Positions 1-7,731 of a stretch of 7,731 nt of DNA are shown here, piece after piece. The DNA lies in the IMG/VR virus record IMGVR_UViG_2541047498_000021. One strand, written 5' to 3'. Made by a program: the position numbers and the translations under genes. The notes under the pieces are model-generated. The model ran no database searches. It was not told where the DNA came from and saw only the letters and a program-made list of their open reading frames with translations. Numbering within the stretch: position 1 is the stretch's first letter; each line of letters begins with the position of its first letter. Source of the DNA: a virus. Its lineage: Duplodnaviria; Heunggongvirae; Uroviricota; Caudoviricetes.

Positions 1-185
1 TCGTTAATTGCCGTTTTTGTCAGCTTTTTAGAGGTCAGCAACTGGTTGAACATATTTCCCGTCTTACCGCCGCCAATATACGACCAGCGCCCCCACATAC
101 GTAGTTTCCCCTGAATCCAGACACTTTCCAGCGTGGTGAGACGAAGGTGCTCTCCGCTTTTTCCTGTGTTCGTTGGGTAAATCAT
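1..185 (-). CDS. Antitermination protein Q-like (quuD/PF06530 type), N-terminal part only; the gene runs off the left edge of the window
   Basis: Minus-strand ATG at 185-183 overlaps the TGA stop of the upstream gene (ATGA). Reading down to position 1 gives MIYPTNTGKSGEHLRLTTLESVWIQGKLRMWGRWSYIGGGKTGNMFNQLLTSKKLTKTAIN with no stop. The L-x-(R/M)-W-G-x-W ... F-x-x-L-(I/L)-T-S-K pattern matches my recollection of E. coli prophage Q-like antiterminators, and the position after a ybcO-like gene fits lambdoid gene order. Not in the supplied ORF track because it is truncated. Confidence 0.5.
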   Translation of the reverse strand, partial: MIYPTNTGKSGEHLRLTTLESVWIQGKLRMWGRWSYIGGGKTGNMFNQLLTSKKLTKTAIN

Positions 186-472
186 AAATAACCGTCCTTT
201 CTCCAGATCTCTTGTGTGCGAAAAACACCTTCTGCATGCATCAGGCGCAATTCTTCTTTGGTGTAATCGCTGGTTTTTACTCTCCCGTCGATTAAATCGT
301 GGCATGAGTTACAGGCAATCGCTGCCTGCATATCGTGTGGCTTTATCGCTGTTCCGCACGTTCCCGCCAGCCTGTAATGCGCCAGCACAGAGGTTTCGGG
401 ATTGTGATTGCAGTAGCCAGGGATTCTGATCTGGCATATCTGGCCTTTAGCCGCTTTACGTAAATTCACCAT
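182..472 (-). CDS. YbcO-like DUF1364 protein (Cys-rich, putative metal-binding nuclease-like protein of the lambdoid nin region)
   Basis: 96-aa ORF. Contains spaced cysteines (CQIRIPGYC ... TCGT ... CNSCHD) and the PETSVLAH segment that I recognise from the YbcO/DUF1364 family of E. coli prophages. Sits directly upstream of the Q-like gene as in DLP12-type prophages. Confidence 0.65.
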   Translation of the reverse strand: MVNLRKAAKGQICQIRIPGYCNHNPETSVLAHYRLAGTCGTAIKPHDMQAAIACNSCHDLIDGRVKTSDYTKEELRLMHAEGVFRTQEIWRKDGYL

Positions 473-1071
473 TACGCAAACTCCAGTAGTTGTGCGGCCA
501 CATTTTCAACTTCCTCCTGAGAGGAGAATTTACGGAACAGAATCCAGTTCCACAGCACATTCAGTACAGATTTATAAACCTGCTGAAACTCGACTTCGTC
601 CATATTCGCAAAAGCGATGGATTTTGCCCGACGCCCACGGCTACCGTCCGGATAAATATGCTCGGTGTAAAATCCGGCCTGAATGGTTACCCACTCGCGG
701 AAAGCCTCAAACGACTTTAGCAACGCCGTATCCCGGGTTCTACGAGTCGCAACGGTGTTAAGGTATTGCTCTGCGGCATCACTCAGGGCTGGCGTGTGTT
801 CCCGACCAACTGATTCGCACAGGTAATCAACGAAACCAGACAGCAGTTCTCGTTCGCGAGGCGTGATCGCCCCACCGACCGGAGTCCAGTAATCGAATCC
901 CAGTTGCAGGAGTTTGAAAAAACGCTTGTGGAATGCGTAGTTACGCACACGCTTAAAATCTGCGTGTATCCACTCACCTATTTTGATTTGATGCAGAAAA
1001 TCGCAACTCTCCGGCGTCGCCGGGAGAAGTAAACCAGAAGAAGTTTGTTTGACCAGTTGTATATGCGCCAT
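472..1071 (-). CDS. Conserved lambdoid-prophage protein, DUF1367-like, function unknown
   Basis: 199-aa ORF in GC-normal phage-like DNA, immediately upstream of the YbcO-like gene, with a GAGAG-like Shine-Dalgarno sequence before the ATG at 1071. The family assignment is from memory of nin-region proteins and is not verified. Confidence 0.6.
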   Translation of the reverse strand: MAHIQLVKQTSSGLLLPATPESCDFLHQIKIGEWIHADFKRVRNYAFHKRFFKLLQLGFDYWTPVGGAITPRERELLSGFVDYLCESVGREHTPALSDAAEQYLNTVATRRTRDTALLKSFEAFREWVTIQAGFYTEHIYPDGSRGRRAKSIAFANMDEVEFQQVYKSVLNVLWNWILFRKFSSQEEVENVAAQLLEFA

Positions 1072-1148
1072 TTCTCAATCTCTCGATGGCGCAGTGCAGC
1101 AGATGCCAGTTGTTCAAGCTAGCACGCAAATTGTAAACCAGAATGCCA

Positions 1149-1175
1149 GGAAAAAACAAAACCCGCCGAAGCTGG
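1149..1175 (-). terminator. Possible intrinsic terminator on the minus strand (short GC stem with UUCG loop followed by a U-tract)
   Basis: The minus-strand RNA would read CCAGC-UUCG-GCGGG followed by UUUUGUUUUUU (plus-strand 1162-1175 then the A-run 1149-1161). The stem is short and has one mismatch, so this is weak evidence. Confidence 0.3.
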
Positions 1176-1490
1176 TTGTGTGCGGTTGCGTTGAAGTCTC
1201 CTAGCCAAAGAGTAGCGGTGACCACTCCCCGCCGATAATCTTAGTTGTTTAATTTCGTAAGCTAACTAGGCTAAAAGCTCTCTGTTGTCTGCCTGTTGTA
1301 CAATTAACAAAATGAACAACGAACTAGATATACCAACGCCAGAATGGTGCAACAAATCCCAAACAACACAGCAATGCAACAATAACATATGTTATTTTCC
1401 TCTCACGGGATTCAGTCCTGAATTCTCATAAAGCTAATCTTTTTTTAAAAACATACTGTTAGATCACATGCACTTTCTTTCTTAACATCG

Positions 1491-1518
1491 TTGACTTCGC
1501 ATGCGAAGCGTTTAAAAT
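1491..1518 (+). promoter_or_regulatory. Sigma70-type promoter for the GHKL-ATPase operon
   Basis: TTGACT at 1491-1496, a 16-bp spacer, then TAAAAT at 1513-1518. This is about 50 bp upstream of the ATG at 1571, which has a GAGAG Shine-Dalgarno-like sequence 6-7 nt before it. Confidence 0.5.
1494..1507. promoter_or_regulatory. Perfect 14-bp palindrome CTTCGCATGCGAAG inside the promoter spacer; candidate operator
   Basis: The sequence equals its own reverse complement and lies between the -35 and -10 elements of the operon promoter, where a bound dimeric protein would occlude RNA polymerase. Confidence 0.35.
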
Positions 1519-1570
1519 CAACAATTTGCACTTAAGGTATTTATTTTCCCAAACACATAGAGAGTAAATT

Positions 1571-2962
1571 ATGACTGAGAACACGACTCCAACAGCAGAC
1601 TTTAGTCCTAGTAAAAGATTTTTTGTAAGTATGCTAACTCGAGATATCGACTTAAACGATGCCATACTTGATCTGCTTGATAACTGCGTCGATGGGGCTT
1701 TACGTACAATAAAAGACACAAAAAAAACTTCAAAACCATATGAAGGATTTTATGCGAAACTTACGATTAATAAAGATGTCTTTATTATAGAAGACAATTG
1801 CGGAGGTATCCCTAAAAGCTTCCGAGAATATGCTTTTAAAATGGGACGACCCCATCAAAAAGAAGAAGAAAATGAAGGCACCGTTGGCGTCTATGGTATT
1901 GGTATGAAAAGAGCCATTTTTAAAATGGGTAGAGATTGCTCAATACAATCGAATAATCCCGATGGCGCATTCACTGTAGATATAACACCTGATTGGATCG
2001 ATGGTGATGGTTGGAAAATACCGATGCACGAGAGTGACTATGATAACAAAAATCCAACAGGCACAACTATAGAGATAAAAAAACTCCATTCTAATGTGGC
2101 ACAAAAATTTAATGAGAGCACATATCTTACTGATCTCTTTTTACAGATAAAACACTCATTGTCATTTATTATTCAAAAAGGATTTAAAATAGAATTAAAT
2201 GGAGTTGTTGTTGAACATAATCCGATTAACATCATAACTGATCATTCTAAAATAGAACCATACATATATAAAGCTAAAATAGACGATGTTGATATCGATT
2301 TAGTTGTTGGCTTCTATAAAAATTTAGAAGATGACAATGATGATGTTTTAGAAAAAAGGAGTTCTGATGATGCTGGATGGACTGTCATTTGCAATGACCG
2401 CGTTGTTCTATATTGTGATAAGACACATCTCACAGGTTGGGGCTTTGCTAATGTACCAAGGTTTCATACCCAATTTATAGCAATTTCTGGGGTTGTTCGC
2501 TTTACCAGTAAAAACCCAGAAAAATTACCAATAACAACAACGAAACGAGGTGTCGATCTTAGTTCTACATTGTACAATGATGTACGAAATAAAATGATTG
2601 AAGGGATGATGCATTTTATTCGATTCACCAATCAGTGGAAAGGTGAGCATCTTGAAGAAGGGAAAAAATTACTTAAGTCAGCTCAGTCACATGAAGCTCA
2701 ATCTTTATTTGAAATTACCCCACAATCAACTCCAGAAGATAAAAAAAATAACTGGTCCAACCCTAATAGAAACAAAAATGAGTGGCGATATACACCTAAG
2801 CTGCCTACCCCAGTAAAAAAAAGCTCTACTGTACGAATAATCTTCACCAGAGAGAAAGAAGATGTTAAAATTTTATCTAAATATTTCTTTGGACATGAAG
2901 ATGCTAGCGCTTCTGATGTGGGGATGCAATGCTTTGATACGGTGATTGAAGAGGTGAAGTGA
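1571..2962 (+). CDS. GHKL-superfamily ATPase (Bergerat fold; MORC/paraMORC-like, HATPase_c_3-type) with a C-terminal extension of about 290 aa
   Basis: 463-aa ORF. N-box LDLLDNCVDGA (residues ~33-43), G1 box IIEDNCGGIP (~73-81) and G2 box GVYGIGMKRA (~106-115) are in the canonical order and spacing. The G-x-Y-G-x-G-x-K form of the G2 box is what I associate with MORC-like ATPases. Confidence 0.8.
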   Translation: MTENTTPTADFSPSKRFFVSMLTRDIDLNDAILDLLDNCVDGALRTIKDTKKTSKPYEGFYAKLTINKDVFIIEDNCGGIPKSFREYAFKMGRPHQKEEENEGTVGVYGIGMKRAIFKMGRDCSIQSNNPDGAFTVDITPDWIDGDGWKIPMHESDYDNKNPTGTTIEIKKLHSNVAQKFNESTYLTDLFLQIKHSLSFIIQKGFKIELNGVVVEHNPINIITDHSKIEPYIYKAKIDDVDIDLVVGFYKNLEDDNDDVLEKRSSDDAGWTVICNDRVVLYCDKTHLTGWGFANVPRFHTQFIAISGVVRFTSKNPEKLPITTTKRGVDLSSTLYNDVRNKMIEGMMHFIRFTNQWKGEHLEEGKKLLKSAQSHEAQSLFEITPQSTPEDKKNNWSNPNRNKNEWRYTPKLPTPVKKSSTVRIIFTREKEDVKILSKYFFGHEDASASDVGMQCFDTVIEEVK

Positions 2963-3951
2963 TGTCTGGACAATACATTCCCTATCACTTAAGGCATAAT
3001 AAGTCTATTGATAGAGAGATTTTTCTCGAAAGCCTAAACCTCTTAAGCAAAAGACTAAATATTCAAGAATATACATATATAGGTTTTGGTGGTCCGATGC
3101 TTGAAGATTTTAGAATCATGCATAATCGTATCGCTCTTTCTGATATGATTTCTCTCGAAGAACAAGAGTCTACTCACATCAGACAAAAATATAATTTGCC
3201 TTATAATTGTATTGATTGTAAGCTAATATCAGCTCATGACTTTATTCTTGATTATAGTTTTTCTAAACCATCAATAACATGGTTAGACTATGCCTCCCCG
3301 AAAAAAATACAAACGGATCTAGATGATATACACTTACTAAGTACTAAAGTAAGCTCTTTTGATATTTTGAAGGTCACCTTCCCCATAAATCCTAGTTCTT
3401 ATTACCAACGTAGAGTTGGAGAAAGTTTAGATATTTTTAAAGAAGCTTTTATTAATTCATTAAAATCATTGCTTGGGAAAAAGTATCTTGATTTTAATCT
3501 TCAGATATCAAATGCAGATCTTTCAGATCGTAAGATTAAAGCTCTTTTAATACGAATTATTACAAACGCTTTTAGATCAGCAATAGAACGTGGTCTTTCA
3601 GGACGTAAGGATAAGATTCAGTATTACCCATTATCCTTAAATCAATATAATGATGGCAGTCATACCATGTTGACAATATCAGGTTTTTTCTCCTCAGAAC
3701 AAGAATATATAGAGTTATCTAAGGCATGCGACCTTTCTAACTGGCAATTTTATTCAACAAATTGGGAAGACGTGCAAGAAATAGCAATACCAACACTAAC
3801 AATTAAAGAAAAGATAAATTTAGATAGTAAACTGCCTGATAAAGAAGCATATCAGGCAGCCGCTGAAGAGTTCTCTTTAAACGAAAATGAACGGGATAAC
3901 TATTATAAATACTATAGGTTATACCCTAACTTCCAAAGAATTATGGTTTAA
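2959..3951 (+). CDS. Protein of unknown function, translationally coupled to the GHKL ATPase; candidate effector (possible degenerate PD-(D/E)xK-like core, unverified)
   Basis: 330-aa ORF. The track start is GTG at 2959, but the likely real start is ATG at 2962, which overlaps the upstream TGA (TGATG). I recognise no family. The N-terminal region has an E-rich helix, then YTYIGFGGP, then IALSD, then CIDCK, which is compatible with, but does not prove, a PD-(D/E)xK nuclease core. Confidence 0.75.
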   Translation: MMSGQYIPYHLRHNKSIDREIFLESLNLLSKRLNIQEYTYIGFGGPMLEDFRIMHNRIALSDMISLEEQESTHIRQKYNLPYNCIDCKLISAHDFILDYSFSKPSITWLDYASPKKIQTDLDDIHLLSTKVSSFDILKVTFPINPSSYYQRRVGESLDIFKEAFINSLKSLLGKKYLDFNLQISNADLSDRKIKALLIRIITNAFRSAIERGLSGRKDKIQYYPLSLNQYNDGSHTMLTISGFFSSEQEYIELSKACDLSNWQFYSTNWEDVQEIAIPTLTIKEKINLDSKLPDKEAYQAAAEEFSLNENERDNYYKYYRLYPNFQRIMV

Positions 3952-5070
3952 ATATTCGGGCTGTACTCTTTTATTTAATAAATTGTACAGCCCCTTTAAT
4001 ATATATTCAGCAACTATTGGTGACACGCTATTTCCTATTTGTCTGAAACTATGCCATTTAGTTACATGAAAGCGAAACCAATCAGGGAAGCCTTGTAATC
4101 TAGCAGCTTCTCTTGGTGTAATCACTCTTGGATGATAAGGGTGGATCGGCCTGACGGCTTGAAAGCTTCCTTTATCTCTAGCGGTTCCCGCCCTTAAAGT
4201 CGGGCAAAAACCATTTGGATCTAATCTTGTAGATCTTGAAATTTTATCAGTTTCCCCAAAAGATAAGGAAGCATAACGCTCTTGGACGATTTTGCTATGT
4301 AATGTTCCGGTACATCCAGATATGATATTATTTTTTAACTTAGCGATCGATTCTGTATCACCAACATTCCGAGGGATCTGCCCCCATAATTTTTCATAAA
4401 ATCCCCCTTTTCGATCTTTTTTAATTGTTCGCCAACTCTCAGAGTCTGATTGCCAATTGGCATCGATAATATCTGGTAATCCATACAAAGCATCTTTTAC
4501 AGTAACCGGATCAATCATTTTAGGCATAAATACTTCATCTGAAATATCAAGCTTCAATGATTTTTTTACACCGATAAAAAAATATCTAGTTCGAATAGTT
4601 GGAGCACCATAATCAGATGCTTTTACCTTGATGGGATCAAGAATATCATAATCACCGCTAACCAAATTAAATGCTTTATTTCTAATGCCAGAATATTTCT
4701 CTTGCATAATACCTGGAACATTTTCTGCCAAAAAGAATAATGGCTGTAATTCTGATACTAAACGGTAGAAATGCATGTAAAGCTGATTCCTGCTATCATC
4801 AGGATTCCCCTTGCCTATTGAACTAAATCCTTGGCACGGAGGACCGCCAATAATACCATCTATGGGCATATCGTTTTTAAAAAAACCCTTAATTATTTCT
4901 GCATTTAGTAAAGAAACATCTTCTTGGACGTGCAAACTTCTTGGAAAATTAATTGCGTGAGTATTAATAGCATGTTGATCAATTTCAACTGCCATTTTAA
5001 CATCAAATCCAGCACGTGCAGCACCAAGACTTAGACCTCCAACGCCAGAAAACAAATCTATTACATTCAT
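3919..5070 (-). CDS. DNA (cytosine-5)-methyltransferase
   Basis: 383-aa ORF with the canonical C5-methyltransferase motifs in order: motif I DLFSGVGG, motif IV GGPPCQGFS (catalytic Cys), motif VI ENV (FFLAENVPG), motif VIII-like TIRTRYFF, a variable region of ~130 aa (target-recognition domain), then RLQGFPDWF and motif X GNSVSP. Confidence 0.9.
   Translation of the reverse strand: MNVIDLFSGVGGLSLGAARAGFDVKMAVEIDQHAINTHAINFPRSLHVQEDVSLLNAEIIKGFFKNDMPIDGIIGGPPCQGFSSIGKGNPDDSRNQLYMHFYRLVSELQPLFFLAENVPGIMQEKYSGIRNKAFNLVSGDYDILDPIKVKASDYGAPTIRTRYFFIGVKKSLKLDISDEVFMPKMIDPVTVKDALYGLPDIIDANWQSDSESWRTIKKDRKGGFYEKLWGQIPRNVGDTESIAKLKNNIISGCTGTLHSKIVQERYASLSFGETDKISRSTRLDPNGFCPTLRAGTARDKGSFQAVRPIHPYHPRVITPREAARLQGFPDWFRFHVTKWHSFRQIGNSVSPIVAEYILKGLYNLLNKRVQPEYLNHNSLEVRV
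3958..4005 (+). terminator. Probable intrinsic terminator of the plus-strand operon, embedded in the 3' coding end of the convergent methyltransferase gene
   Basis: 9-bp stem GGGCTGTAC (3958-3966) pairs with GTACAGCCC (3985-3993); the loop is AT-rich with internal pairing potential; the stem is followed by CTTTAATATATATT. It begins 7 nt after the TAA at 3949-3951. Confidence 0.4.
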
Positions 5071-5095
5071 ATAGTTGCAACGTCTCTTATTAGTT

Positions 5096-5132
5096 TCTAT
5101 GTATTATAACACAACTGTTCTTGATGTTTTAA
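5096..5132 (-). promoter_or_regulatory. Candidate extended -10 promoter for the methyltransferase gene
   Basis: The minus strand reads TTAAAA (plus 5127-5132), an 18-bp spacer, then TGT-TATAAT (hexamer at plus 5103-5108 with a TG two bases upstream). This is about 26-30 nt upstream of the ATG at 5070. Confidence 0.45.
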
Positions 5133-5332
5133 CCCCATAAGATAACCTCATAAAGGCTATCCCTTGAAAATACCGGATCGCATAAATTTAATCTTTCAAA
5201 ACTACTTGTCTATTAATCGAGCAATTTAAGGTTGTTTTAGTCATGTCGATACCGACATAGTTAACTAAACCCATTTCATCGTCCAACAAATGGGGGTAAT
5301 ACACTTTGATTTATAGTCGGGTGGGTTTTTCT

Positions 5333-5368
5333 CTATCTGCCTTTGGTGTTCATGCCCAAGGCAGATAG
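5333..5368. repeat. Near-perfect inverted repeat (about 13-bp arms, 9-nt loop) at the cassette/phage junction
   Basis: CTATCTGCCTTTGG (5333-5346) is the reverse complement of CCAAGGCAGATAG (5356-5368) apart from a one-base bulge. No U-tract follows on either strand, so it is not a canonical intrinsic terminator. Confidence 0.5.
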
Positions 5369-5501
5369 CCTCAAGCACCCGCAGCAATTCTACTTAACTA
5401 TCCTTTTCCCGCAAACCGTTTTTATCCCCAGCGGCAAATCGAATACACCACCAGCGCCACCGCCATCGCAATTCCTACCGTTGTGAATGCTTCAGGCCAG
5501 G

Positions 5502-6059
5502 TCATTGATTCACCTCCTGCGGCGGTTCTGGTAGCGACATCCAGTGGGTTGCTTGCCTAAGATCATTACCCGGACTAACTGCTATACCTCCGCGCCGGAA
5601 CGTGCCTCCGAGATAGCGTGCGGAATATATTAATGGCCCAGCCTCGCTATCGATATTCATCGAAATAAGCACGTTCTGGCTCTTTTCAGGCATTCGCTCA
5701 GTACAGCTTATCCAGCCATCCAGAGTTATCGGAGATCTGGTTGACGTTTCCGAGATTTCCCGAAAATTGTTGGTTGACGAATTCTTATTTTCCCGAAAGT
5801 TTCCGGCCTGAAGCATGGCGACGCGGCAGGCGTTCCAGCCATCAGCATATGTTTTAGTTACACCGTCGAGATGGCAGGTAAGCAAATCCATTTCATCAGG
5901 CACTACCATTGCTATCGGCTCTGCTTCCAGTGATGCCAGCGCGATACGAAACACATTAGCCAGCAGGCTGTCTGAAGACTTGTTATCGTGCGCCGAGTCG
6001 CTCAGGAAGCCTGTGATGTATGATTTAATCTCCGCGCGTTCTCTGGTAATAGTGCTCAT
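5502..6059 (-). CDS. Phage protein with a C-terminal DUF551 domain
   Basis: 185-aa ORF. The C-terminal segment GWISCTERMPE ... ATHWMSLPEPP matches the W-I-x-x-x-E-x-x-P ... THWMPLPEPP signature I recall for DUF551 in enterobacterial prophages. GC-normal and tightly packed with its neighbour. Confidence 0.75.
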   Translation of the reverse strand: MSTITRERAEIKSYITGFLSDSAHDNKSSDSLLANVFRIALASLEAEPIAMVVPDEMDLLTCHLDGVTKTYADGWNACRVAMLQAGNFRENKNSSTNNFREISETSTRSPITLDGWISCTERMPEKSQNVLISMNIDSEAGPLIYSARYLGGTFRRGGIAVSPGNDLRQATHWMSLPEPPQEVNQ

Positions 6060-6060
6060 A

Positions 6061-6279
6061 TCAGTTTTCCTTATACGGATTAATTTTATTGTGCAGTGCG
6101 CTGAATGATTCCCATGTCACATCGGTATATAGCTCAATAACTGGTTCAAATGTCCTTCCAATTATCCAGACCAGTAATAGCGGGGATATCGGTATCATCA
6201 ACACTATAAACAGAATGAAAAACAGAAACTCTGTTGTTCTGCTCTTTCGTGGGTAATTTTTTTCTAAATAATGTTTCAT
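6061..6279 (-). CDS. Small single-pass membrane protein (phage, function unknown)
   Basis: 72-aa ORF with one hydrophobic stretch of about 24 residues (FLFFILFIVLMIPISPLLLVWIIG). Its stop lies 1 nt from the start of the DUF551 gene. Confidence 0.5.
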   Translation of the reverse strand: MKHYLEKNYPRKSRTTEFLFFILFIVLMIPISPLLLVWIIGRTFEPVIELYTDVTWESFSALHNKINPYKEN

Positions 6280-6406
6280 TTCTTACCGCCCTTTCGGGCG
6301 GCCTCCTGATGTTCTGAGGGTGCAGGAATCCCTCCGGTTAAGGATTTAATAAAAATCGTTTCTGATTTAAATCTTCAGTATTTAGTTGTTAGTTGGTTTA
6401 TCGCCT

Positions 6407-6718
6407 TTATGCTTCAGCCTTATTTCGCAACCAGACACAAACCGGGCCATCTTCCGTATCATGAATGGAACCAATAAACCAGCCATCGCCCTCTGGTCGT
6501 TCCGGTTCCCATGCAGAAATATCAGCATCACACGCATCAAGGTCAGCACATCCTTCATCTCTGAAGCAGAGGACGTATTGAAGATTATTTTCCTCCATCC
6601 AGGCGTTAAACTCTTCCGTTGAAATATATTCCCGACCATCACAGAATTTTTCATATTCAGGATGTGTCCAGTAGCCATATCCGTCACGAACTACCGGCAT
6701 TTCTTTAATTTCACTCAC
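6407..6718 (-). CDS. Phage hypothetical protein (acidic, Cys-containing; no family recognised)
   Basis: 103-aa ORF in GC-normal DNA. Its start overlaps the stop of the upstream ORF by 8 nt, typical of phage gene packing. I chose it over the overlapping 101-aa and 78-aa alternative frames because its translation is not low-complexity. Confidence 0.55.
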   Translation of the reverse strand: MSEIKEMPVVRDGYGYWTHPEYEKFCDGREYISTEEFNAWMEENNLQYVLCFRDEGCADLDACDADISAWEPERPEGDGWFIGSIHDTEDGPVCVWLRNKAEA

Positions 6719-6938
6719 TGTTAACCTCCTGCAACGCTACACGATACGCCTTCTTTATCCACGCCTTACTGCCATATAATTTCGTCTTCATAATAAACAC
6801 ACCTGCACGACTCGCCGATATCCCCGGACAGGTTAACAGCACAGCATCCACCACACGGTTATGCTTCCGAAACTCCATTACAGTACTGCTGATAACCACC
6901 TGCCCCACCGGGCCGTAATCCTGATACAGGATTTTCAC
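6711..6938 (-). CDS. Phage hypothetical protein
   Basis: 75-aa ORF whose ends overlap both neighbours by a few nt, consistent with coupled translation in a phage operon. No family recognised. Confidence 0.45.
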   Translation of the reverse strand: MKILYQDYGPVGQVVISSTVMEFRKHNRVVDAVLLTCPGISASRAGVFIMKTKLYGSKAWIKKAYRVALQEVNSE

Positions 6939-7216
6939 GCAGACACCCTCCTGTCGAAATAAACGTAGTTATTCACTATGCGCAGCGGCATGCCTAATTT
7001 TCTGGCAATTTCCCTTCTTTGCATGCCTCTCTGATGCAGTTGCCGCGCCAGCTCAATATCACGCTGAGAATATTTTGCCGACGGGTGAAAATCACCACGT
7101 AACATCATGCTGATGCCCAGCTCCCGTGCCTTCGTTCTCACTGCCGCTTCAGTTCGTCCGATAAGTGCGCCAACGCTTTTTACCTTCATCGTTCCCGCAC
7201 ACTGCCGGAGTATCAT
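6935..7216 (-). CDS. Putative helix-turn-helix DNA-binding protein (phage regulator-like)
   Basis: The track ORF runs 6935-7339, but its first ~40 codons are an Arg-rich out-of-frame read through the upstream gene. The likely start is ATG at 7216 (MILRQ...) or 7189 (MKVKS...). The product has two HTH-like segments, SVGALIGRTEAAVRTKARELGI and QRGMQRREIARKLGMPLRIV. Confidence 0.5.
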   Translation of the reverse strand: MILRQCAGTMKVKSVGALIGRTEAAVRTKARELGISMMLRGDFHPSAKYSQRDIELARQLHQRGMQRREIARKLGMPLRIVNNYVYFDRRVSA

Positions 7217-7248
7217 GATTTCCGCCCGGCACCACGTCTTCCACCCAC

Positions 7249-7731
7249 TCACCGCTGCTGTTCTCTGGTGGCGGTAATATCCCGGAGAATATCCCGGCAC
7301 TTGTTCAGCTCCCGCAGCGCGGCGCAGACTCGCTCCCACTTCTGAACCTGACCTTTTGCCCGGCGCAGCTCGCGGTTAGCCACATGCAGCGATGGTAAAA
7401 TCAGACCATCCGGATGCTTTCTGGTGAACGACGGCTGTGACTGCACTGTGACCGCCACACTTTCCGTTTTTATTTCTTCCTGTGTTTCCGCTTCCCCGAC
7501 TGGTAACGCAACACCTGCTGGCTGAGGAAAGGCTTTACCATCCGTTTCCGTTATGGATGCGGCTTTCGGCTCTGCCGGTAAATCAGCGCCCGGTATGCAG
7601 TACCGAAATTTACCGCCCTGATTCACGCGAATCAGACGCCCTTTGCTGATTGCCATGGCCAGTGATGAATTCGCCCGGCGGGAGGTAATCCCGAACATCA
7701 GTGCCAGCTCATCCGCCGTTTGTGGGCCATG
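7249..7731 (-). CDS. Phage protein, 5' end beyond the right edge of the window; N-terminal HTH-like segment and coiled-coil-like C-terminus
   Basis: The track gives 7249-7698, but the frame stays open upstream of the ATG at 7698 to the window edge (…[36 protein letters not shown]…), so the true start is probably outside the window. The C-terminus (…[41 protein letters not shown]) looks like a genuine coding frame. Confidence 0.55.

Follow-up and report, generated by a model that had tools for sequence, protein, structure and literature searches.

A methyltransferase-fold partner of a MORC-like ATPase in a prophage-borne cassette that resembles restriction-modification systems

Among the genes in a 7,731-nucleotide (nt) stretch of viral DNA from IMG/VR record IMGVR_UViG_2541047498_000021—'the window' hereafter, meaning the whole stretch—is one for a 329-amino acid (aa) protein of the Methyltransf_35 family (PF20553). 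This protein almost certainly has the fold of class I methyltransferases that bind S-adenosylmethionine (SAM), and works in partnership with the MORC-like GHKL ATPase encoded immediately before it. Together, the ATPase and the Methyltransf_35 protein form the invariant core of a mobile cassette, usually accompanied by a C5 cytosine DNA methyltransferase (Dcm) and sometimes by the mismatch endonuclease Vsr. On balance we lean toward the view that the protein is the methyltransferase-fold partner of the ATPase in a prophage-borne, restriction-modification-like cassette without a nuclease. Judging by its conserved residues it is probably an active transferase, and its substrate seems somewhat likely to be nucleic acid. 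On whether the cassette acts against phages or other invaders, with 5-methylcytosine (m5C) as the mark of self, we are evenly divided.

The original prediction, made from the letters of the window alone, recognized no family for this protein and suspected a cryptic nuclease. There is a family, however. The protein matches Pfam PF20553 ('Putative O-methyltransferase') over positions 1–308 of the 309 in the model (E 2e-89, 300.4 bits against a gathering cut-off of 27), all 69 diverse homologs that we aligned match it as well, and the RefSeq entry, WP_000016656.1, from a Rac-type prophage of Escherichia coli O157:H7 EDL933, is already named 'O-methyltransferase'. That the gene is real is evident from 33 clusters in a set of 5.8 billion proteins, and from an exhaustive profile search that returns 2215 representative clusters (50% identity, E ≤ 1e-3), of which 1194 reach E ≤ 1e-30. 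Nearly all members are stand-alone proteins of ~320–345 aa. The protein belongs, then, to a curated, uncharacterized family, and the reading of it as an unknown protein with a hidden nuclease is wrong.

In sequence the family stands apart. When the 69 members are scanned against Pfam, even at E ≤ 10, only PF20553 recurs and no other methyltransferase family is matched; the family profile finds nothing among sequences of the PDB, even at E 10; and hhalign comparison with E. coli RsmD and RlmJ and with a two-sequence Trm1 alignment gives probabilities of 0.2–1.1%, which are not significant. Membership of the Trm1 family can be set aside: there is no Pfam TRM match, the hhalign probability against the two Trm1 sequences is 0.2%, and the resemblance is structural only. 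Certain Trm1 motifs (FYNP..NRD, LDPFGSP, TATD and Y.DHY) presumably resemble motifs of our family (YHLR.NK..DR, LDY.SP, TLNAN and Y.DG.H), which is a lead rather than a result. Neither the protein nor its 69 relatives match an O-methyltransferase family in Pfam, and the nearest folds are N- and C-methyltransferases of RNA bases. Because the family is isolated in sequence, and enzymes acting on the nitrogens or carbons of bases are the nearest in fold, the 'O' in the Pfam and RefSeq label appears, from what the sequences offer, to be unsupported although not disproved; annotation is carrying a label without evidence for that letter.

The fold comes from an AlphaFold2 model built on an alignment of homologs (mean predicted local distance difference test score, pLDDT, 88.5; predicted template modeling score 0.87). 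We aligned 20 homologs and then 69, the wider set being 27–38% identical to the window protein except for one close relative, and we express conservation as residue counts per column across these 69. In the model, strands at residues 38–42, 61–66, 84–88, 104–109 and 135–141 alternate with helices, a helical insert occupies 144–212, and a beta6–beta7 hairpin (220–231, 234–244) leads into a helical C-terminal region. This order of strands and helices is the topology of class I SAM methyltransferases, with the seven-stranded sheet and C-terminal beta-hairpin of that class and a likeness to its solved members. In a Foldseek search with the model, Trm1 ranks first (E 1.9e-6, template modeling (TM) score 0.44) and all of the matches listed are methyltransferases. 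Two structure comparisons yield as neighbors Trm1, RsmD-like proteins, RlmI, RlmO, RlmJ, METTL16, TrmN and Trm14, and nucleases are absent from both lists.

The residues conserved in the family fall where a class I methyltransferase would need them (Table 1): a glycine-rich motif I follows beta1, an acidic motif II ends beta2, and conserved motif IV residues end beta4. E66 occupies the position that, in methyltransferases, binds the ribose of SAM, and so marks a predicted cofactor site; D109–Y110 stand at the usual catalytic position of the class, and their role is putatively catalytic. The basic motif of the first helix may form a lid that binds the cofactor or a phosphate. R74, Q75 and N78 are likewise invariant or nearly so. 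The residues directly after beta5, beside the presumed substrate pocket, show a lineage-specific change: at 141–142 (3382–3387) the enterobacterial clade that includes the window protein reads T-F-P-I-N-P, where nearly all others read T-L-N-A-N-P.

The model also disposes of the PD-(D/E)xK nuclease core that had been proposed for the N-terminal part of the protein. The peptides on which that proposal was built are all present where it placed them: DREIFLESLNLL at residues 17–28, YTYIGFGGP at 37–45, IALSD at nt 3130–3144, and CIDCK at nt 3208–3222. What they form is a methyltransferase fold, not the alpha-beta-beta-beta-alpha-beta mixed-sheet core of PD-(D/E)xK enzymes. YTYIGFGGP contains motif I, and IALSD, taken for a strand ending in aspartate, comprises the last part of a helix and a loop, with the aspartate opening beta2. 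The three residues put forward as catalytic, D62, D86 and K88, become D61, D85 and K87 when counted, as here, from the ATG at 2962, and none is conserved among the 69 homologs (K in 22, D in 15 and N in 13 at 61; E in 16, D in 14 and K in 9 at 85; L in 17, K in 15 and R in 9 at 87). Structure prediction and a Foldseek search, two of the checks named along with the proposal, gave a methyltransferase fold with no nuclease among its neighbors. We therefore reject the PD-(D/E)xK core on the grounds of fold, structural neighbors and the variability of the proposed residues. The alternative offered alongside it, a degenerate Rossmann-like nucleotide-binding site, came closer. A glycine-rich loop does come before an acidic residue, the acid being E66 rather than D61, and the site, far from degenerate, is well conserved.

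The gene itself was correctly delimited apart from its first codon. The open reading frame (ORF) had been drawn as 330 codons (2959–3951, plus strand) from a GTG at 2959. Because full-length homologs (329–338 aa) and the RefSeq protein begin at the methionine of the ATG at 2962, we place the start there. The ATPase stop codon, TGA 2960–2962, and this ATG, 2962–2964, have one base in common at the junction GAGGTGAAGTGATG, with GAGG 7 nt upstream, and the ORF is translationally coupled to that of the ATPase.

The ATPase has the two domains expected of MORC and paraMORC systems—a GHKL domain and an S5-type second domain—with all of the GHKL ATP-binding motifs present and with the lysine of TTKRG in the second domain, K325, invariant. 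The best matches to its structural model (pLDDT 81.6) are MORC3 (19.9), SMCHD1 (18.7) and MORC2 (17.8), followed by the Hsp90 family (TRAP1 and GRP94, up to 15.5), the ATPase subunits of type II topoisomerases (ParE and Topo VI-B, ~14) and MutL (13.3). Searches of Pfam, NCBIfam and PADLOC, and structural comparison, reveal no nuclease domain in the ATPase or in its partner.

We gathered related loci from genomes, viral contigs and metagenomes and called the three gene families by iterated profile searches; the locus search was seeded with alignments narrower than the 69-sequence set. After removal of duplicates, 126 loci remained, from Proteobacteria, Spirochaetes, and human-gut and other metagenomes. 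Wherever more than 1 kb of upstream sequence is available, the ATPase gene lies immediately 5' of the partner gene in all but one locus (73/74). Of 105 non-redundant pairs, 79 have an ATPase stop that overlaps the partner start, most commonly by 4 nt, and in 103 the two genes are within 18 nt of each other; the pairing persists down to ~30% ATPase identity. The original prediction had argued from the junction in the window that the two proteins are stoichiometric partners, and the adjacency and the overlaps support it strongly.

In the single exception, from a Nevskia metagenome-assembled genome (L006), the ATPase is joined in frame to residues 274–327 only of the partner. This hints that the C-terminal helical region serves as the module that contacts the ATPase; alternatively, the locus is a decayed copy. 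The fusion is one ORF of 508 aa (5657–7183) from which the methyltransferase core has been deleted, and the contig ends soon after. Three viral contigs depart from the pattern in another way (L170 5977–7722, L171 5965–7686 and L173 5989–7749). They have no partner gene, and a cytosine methylase gene is followed instead by a longer ATPase (573–586 aa), which has a linker of low complexity and, at its C terminus, a further conserved helical domain of ~180 aa (with strings such as HSLRRFxxH...LNSAMHN); in L171, Vsr comes next. The extra domain has no match in Pfam and may stand in for the methyltransferase partner. An 'R-x4-H' string within it suggested a HEPN-like domain, and this reading was dropped since Pfam gives it no support.

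The cytosine methylase is a frequent companion of the pair, next to it in ~80–95% of loci. Among 35 loci with at least 1.7 kb of sequence on both sides it adjoins the pair in 27 or 28, convergent and downstream in 22 and co-directional and upstream in 5, and in nearly all viral loci it is adjacent too; linkage to a DNA methylase, typical of MORC and paraMORC systems, is thus a feature of this one. Vsr is present in 30 of the 126 loci. In 16 of these it lies directly upstream of the ATPase gene and in the same direction, sometimes overlapping it (L002 5167–5577, L003 1228–1650, L004 5220–5627, also L023, L026, L037 and others), and so would be co-transcribed with the ATPase–partner pair and not with the cytosine methylase, unlike the classical dcm–vsr arrangement. 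There is no remnant of Vsr in the window. Among 589 clustered neighboring ORFs no further partner recurs, neither nuclease nor helicase, beyond Dcm and Vsr; the other recurrent families are phage core genes.

Some pairs have no Dcm, and their neighbors include DarT with Macro, an MrfA-like helicase, a type IV secretion coupling protein, CHAT-TPR, MoxR and Trypco1, a context of conflict islands and mobile elements. One of them (L028 7000–8700) sits beside genes for a DarT toxin and a Macro-domain protein, an arrangement like DarTG, on a contig that also encodes the type IV secretion coupling protein, which points to a defense island of a conjugative element. Because such loci exist, the pair either need not depend on m5C for self-marking or is not toxic in its absence.

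The cassette is found in particular places. The same 4.2 kb, at 100% identity, is present in E. coli O157:H7 EDL933 and in many other Shiga toxin-producing strains, and 172 of the 5426 complete E. coli genomes have it in full. The EDL933 copy separates a DUF1367 gene from the replication genes of a Rac-type prophage, and RefSeq names its three products 'ATP-binding protein', 'O-methyltransferase' and 'DNA cytosine methyltransferase'. Other lambdoid loci have it beside DUF1367, DUF968 or DnaT-like genes, the same slot as in the window. Around 15 of the non-redundant loci are P2-like prophages that carry the cassette with replication gene A on one side of it and the portal and terminase genes on the other; this is the gpA–gpQ hotspot, which is known to harbor anti-phage systems (PMC9122126). 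The raw P2-hotspot table of Rousset 2022 contains an entry, 'DNA_methylase + HATPase_c_3 + hypothetical', that matches this arrangement, the 'hypothetical' being a possible Methyltransf_35 protein; the searchable text and supplements of that work do not include the arrangement among the systems tested. These are known prophage defense slots, and the cassette's presence in them is suggestive rather than proof.

The protein is rare on plasmids, which give two matches, and 50,697 deposited phage genomes give one, the temperate filamentous Pseudomonas phage PfAC20 (PP058144; L176). There the ATPase, partner and cytosine methylase genes run in one direction (1–3711) at the accessory end of a 13.6-kb Pf prophage, the end at which related Pf phages have defense genes, and deeper inside the prophage (5438–6082) there is another cytosine methylase gene, a short one. 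The authors who described PfAC20 scored the triad as an incomplete restriction-modification system (PMC11878078).

In the window, 7.7 kb of lambdoid prophage DNA of ~50% GC is interrupted by a 4-kb island of three genes. The flanks, 182–1071 and 5502–7698, consist of minus-strand genes usual in lambdoid prophages (DUF1364 and DUF1367 to the left; small hypothetical, DUF977 and DUF1627-type genes to the right), and confirm the island as an insertion in the region that separates the replication genes from the late-gene regulator. Relative to the phage early genes around it, the ATPase–partner operon is antisense and the cytosine methylase gene co-oriented. The 3' ends of the convergent partner and methylase genes overlap, by 33 nt in the window (3919–3951) and by 19–50 nt elsewhere (L118, L061 and many others). 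This leaves no room for a terminator, and transcription of either unit must therefore enter the other; by analogy with some Type II systems the overlap may be regulatory. Promoter-like sites precede the two units, and such sites are no more numerous in the region than chance would have it. Upstream of the cytosine methylase gene, at 5302–5399, a stretch of ~77–98 nt is 93–96% identical to a segment of Shiga toxin phages annotated as 'sokW antisense RNA' in 933W, and may be a remnant of a hok/sok-type locus at the right edge of the island. A terminator-like hairpin is present at 5318–5339 (plus strand), and no Rfam family reaches its gathering score anywhere in the window.

Table 1. Coordinates of the genes, conserved motifs and other features in the window
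Feature	Position	Strand	Remarks
Low-GC island with the three genes	1250–5300		~31–39% GC against ~50% in the flanks
Promoter-like site TTGACT-16-TAAAAT	1491–1518	+	~50 nt 5' of ATPase start; consensus match only
MORC-like GHKL ATPase gene (GHKL domain and S5-type transducer)	1571–2962	+	463 aa; obligate upstream partner
ATPase/Methyltransf_35 coupling junction, GAGGTGAAGTGATG	2951–2964	+	Shine-Dalgarno-like GAGG, stop TGA, start ATG
Methyltransf_35 (PF20553) gene	2962–3951	+	329 aa; class I SAM-dependent methyltransferase-fold protein
N-terminal basic motif R11-x-N13-K14-x-x-D17-R18	2992–3015	+	First helix (12–28); R11, K14 and R18 each 69/69
Motif I, Y39-I-G-F-G43-G44	3076–3093	+	Strand beta1 (38–42) and Gly-rich loop; Y39 69/69, G43 64/69, G44 61/69
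Motif II, S64-L-E66	3151–3159	+	End of beta2 (61–66); S64 67/69, E66 65/69 (D in the other 4)
Motif IV, W107-L-D109-Y110	3280–3291	+	End of beta4 (104–109); W107 69/69, L 64/69, D109 69/69, Y110 63/69 (F in 6)
beta6–beta7 hairpin	3646–3675	+	Strands 220–231 and 234–244; Y229 69/69, D231 68/69, M236 67/69, T238 65/69
Family-specific C-terminal helical region, residues 246–329	3697–3948	+	Conserved P277, E283, Y314, R319 and P322; no solved counterpart identified
C5 cytosine DNA methyltransferase gene	3919–5070	−	383 aa; Pfam DNA_methylase 2.6e-61, TIGR00675, PADLOC MTase_II 2e-98
Promoter-like site TTAAAA-18-TATAAT with TG	5103–5132	−	~30 nt 5' of cytosine methylase start; consensus match only

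From the family, the fold, the cofactor-type motifs, the obligate synteny, the linkage to Dcm and Vsr and the location in defense hotspots, we infer how such a cassette might operate. On binding ATP, the ATPase would dimerize and clamp DNA, as MORC and MutL-type GHKL proteins do, and the clamped ATPase would then deliver the methyltransferase subunit to the DNA. The subunit would move the methyl group of SAM to a nucleic-acid acceptor by way of its invariant D109–Y110 site. The m5C laid down by the linked Dcm would label DNA as self, and the cassette as a whole would be an immunity module of the restriction-modification kind, with a methyltransferase in the nuclease's place. One form that this could take, and a speculative one that we would not bet on, is restriction by writing: the clamp would load onto DNA that lacks the cassette's m5C, and the enzyme would add a non-canonical methylation of base or backbone, or some other SAM-derived alkylation. 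The added mark would block replication or transcription, and the invader would be inactivated without a nuclease.

A number of observations weigh against this proposal. The protein has no tie in sequence, by Pfam or hhalign, to any characterized methyltransferase family, and its nearest folds are methyltransferases of RNA and small molecules, not of DNA. NCBIfam and PADLOC have no model for it or for the ATPase, and our literature search found PF20553, Methyltransf_35, the RefSeq accessions and the gene triad in no paper. The enterobacterial clade, window protein included, has P-I in place of N141 and A142, which are N in 64 and A in 63 of the 69 homologs. Of the 35 loci flanked in full, seven lack a DNA methylase within 6 kb. 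Location in a defense slot, lastly, is suggestive but does not prove function. Pairs without Dcm argue against plain lethality toward unmethylated DNA, and three other explanations stay alive for that reason.

The pair might, firstly, be a second protective or epigenetic DNA methylase: ATP-driven, loaded as a clamp, and modifying, along with Dcm, the DNA of the element or the host, with no restriction involved and with Vsr present to repair deaminated m5C. We consider this improbable rather than far-fetched. It accords with the lack of a visible nuclease domain in either partner, with conserved motifs of catalytic type, with the apparent viability of Dcm-less pairs and with the Vsr linkage, which suits m5C housekeeping; eukaryotic MORCs, too, aid the DNA-methylation machinery. 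It accords poorly with the phages, however, since the virulent ones, in which anti-restriction methylases are common, do not have the protein and the one phage match is temperate. In the window the pair runs antisense to the phage early genes, like a moron expressed in the lysogen, it recurs in slots that hold mostly defense genes, and its nearest folds are not those of DNA methylases.

That same structural neighborhood, tRNA and rRNA base methyltransferases at the top, suggests an abortive-infection effector directed at RNA: once the ATPase had sensed DNA that is invading or abnormal, it would switch on methylation of tRNA or rRNA, and translation would stop. The conserved basic residues R11, K14, R18 and R74 would suit the binding of nucleic acid, and Dcm-less pairs do occur in islands beside toxin-type systems. 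Yet partners of the MORC and MutL type act on DNA, Dcm and Vsr, to which the pair is tightly linked, likewise indicate DNA, and there is no detectable kinship in sequence to the RNA methyltransferase families. We judge this decidedly unlikely.

Very unlikely, in our estimation, is a protein that catalyzes nothing, and serves as an adaptor or sensor whose fold binds SAM or S-adenosylhomocysteine, or flips and reads the base for cytosine methylation, and thereby gates an ATPase that silences foreign DNA by compacting it. D109 is present in every homolog and Y110, G43 and E66 in more than 90%, the pattern expected for catalysis and not for binding alone. For the adaptor speak the loss of the family's N141–A142 from the clade of the window, the Nevskia fusion, which keeps only the C-terminal 55 residues of the partner joined to the ATPase, and the fact that MORC proteins compact DNA without nucleases. 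As for a cryptic PD-(D/E)xK nuclease that cuts DNA under the control of the ATPase, it had in its favor only local strings (the glycine-rich turn, IALSD and CIDCK) and the expectation that a methylase-linked operon should include a nuclease, and in view of the fold it is hardly credible at all.

The MORC gene-silencing ATPases of eukaryotes presumably descend from the MORC and paraMORC ATPases of prokaryotes, and the cassette is a compact and widespread example of the prokaryotic systems, its partner family comprising ~2200 clusters at 50% identity. It is directly testable, because complete E. coli genomes contain it, that of the reference strain EDL933 among them. A role of the pair as immune effector or as ATP-driven DNA methylase, if borne out, would represent a new mechanism in bacterial immunity, and MORC ATPases would be tied to methylation in bacteria as they are in eukaryotes. 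Restriction by writing, if real, would bring to light a new class of immune effector and give MORC-coupled DNA methylation a precedent in prokaryotes. If the pair turned out to be no more than a second methylase with a housekeeping role, the finding would be a modest one.

Among known proteins and systems, the RNA methyltransferases of the Trm1 and RsmD/RlmJ types are the nearest to the Methyltransf_35 protein in structure, and differ from it in all else: hhalign probabilities are below 2%, the TM-score is 0.44 only, and the protein has, in addition, the helical insert at 144–212, a C-terminal domain, and the company of an ATPase that acts on DNA. Of the defense systems, BREX is alike in its use of methylation to mark self DNA, its need for an ATPase and its lack of a recognizable nuclease. 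It differs in having 4–8 genes and in marking self with a single methylase, PglX, whereas in the cassette a separate Dcm would do the marking and the second methyltransferase-fold protein is an extra part; no BREX component is homologous, neither partner having a match in PADLOC. The same is true of the other systems cataloged in PADLOC v2 (DISARM, Druantia, Hma, Mza and others): neither partner matches at E ≤ 1. Only Dcm is matched there, to generic methylase models. In a separate search an MzaB model scores E 0.037, far below its own cut-off.

Classical Type II restriction-modification systems share with the cassette a convergent, tightly packed layout with a C5 methylase, a mobile island of low GC content and the position of a prophage moron. 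The putative restriction side of the cassette, however, is an ATPase plus a methyltransferase fold, and in neither of the two did we find a nuclease family or fold that could be the cognate restriction endonuclease. Very-short-patch repair in E. coli is similar in its components—a cytosine methylase, the nicking enzyme Vsr and a GHKL ATPase of the MutL family, all at the same DNA sites—and in 16 loci of the cassette Vsr is co-transcribed with the ATPase.

The closest parallel is with the operons of paraMORC and MORC proteins that Iyer, Abhiman and Aravind predicted in 2008 to be restriction-modification-like (PMC2292703). As described in the available sections of that paper, those operons have in common with the cassette a GHKL and S5 ATPase with intact motifs, a cytosine methylase, often an endonuclease of the Vsr superfamily, and lateral mobility. 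They pair these with helicases or with nuclease candidates—restriction endonuclease-fold, HNH, TIR or an uncharacterized C-terminal domain—whereas the cassette has a constant methyltransferase-fold partner, a kind of partner that goes unmentioned in those sections, and no nuclease domain that we could find in the pair. The cassette thus adds a methyltransferase-partner variant to the restriction-modification-like systems linked to paraMORC.

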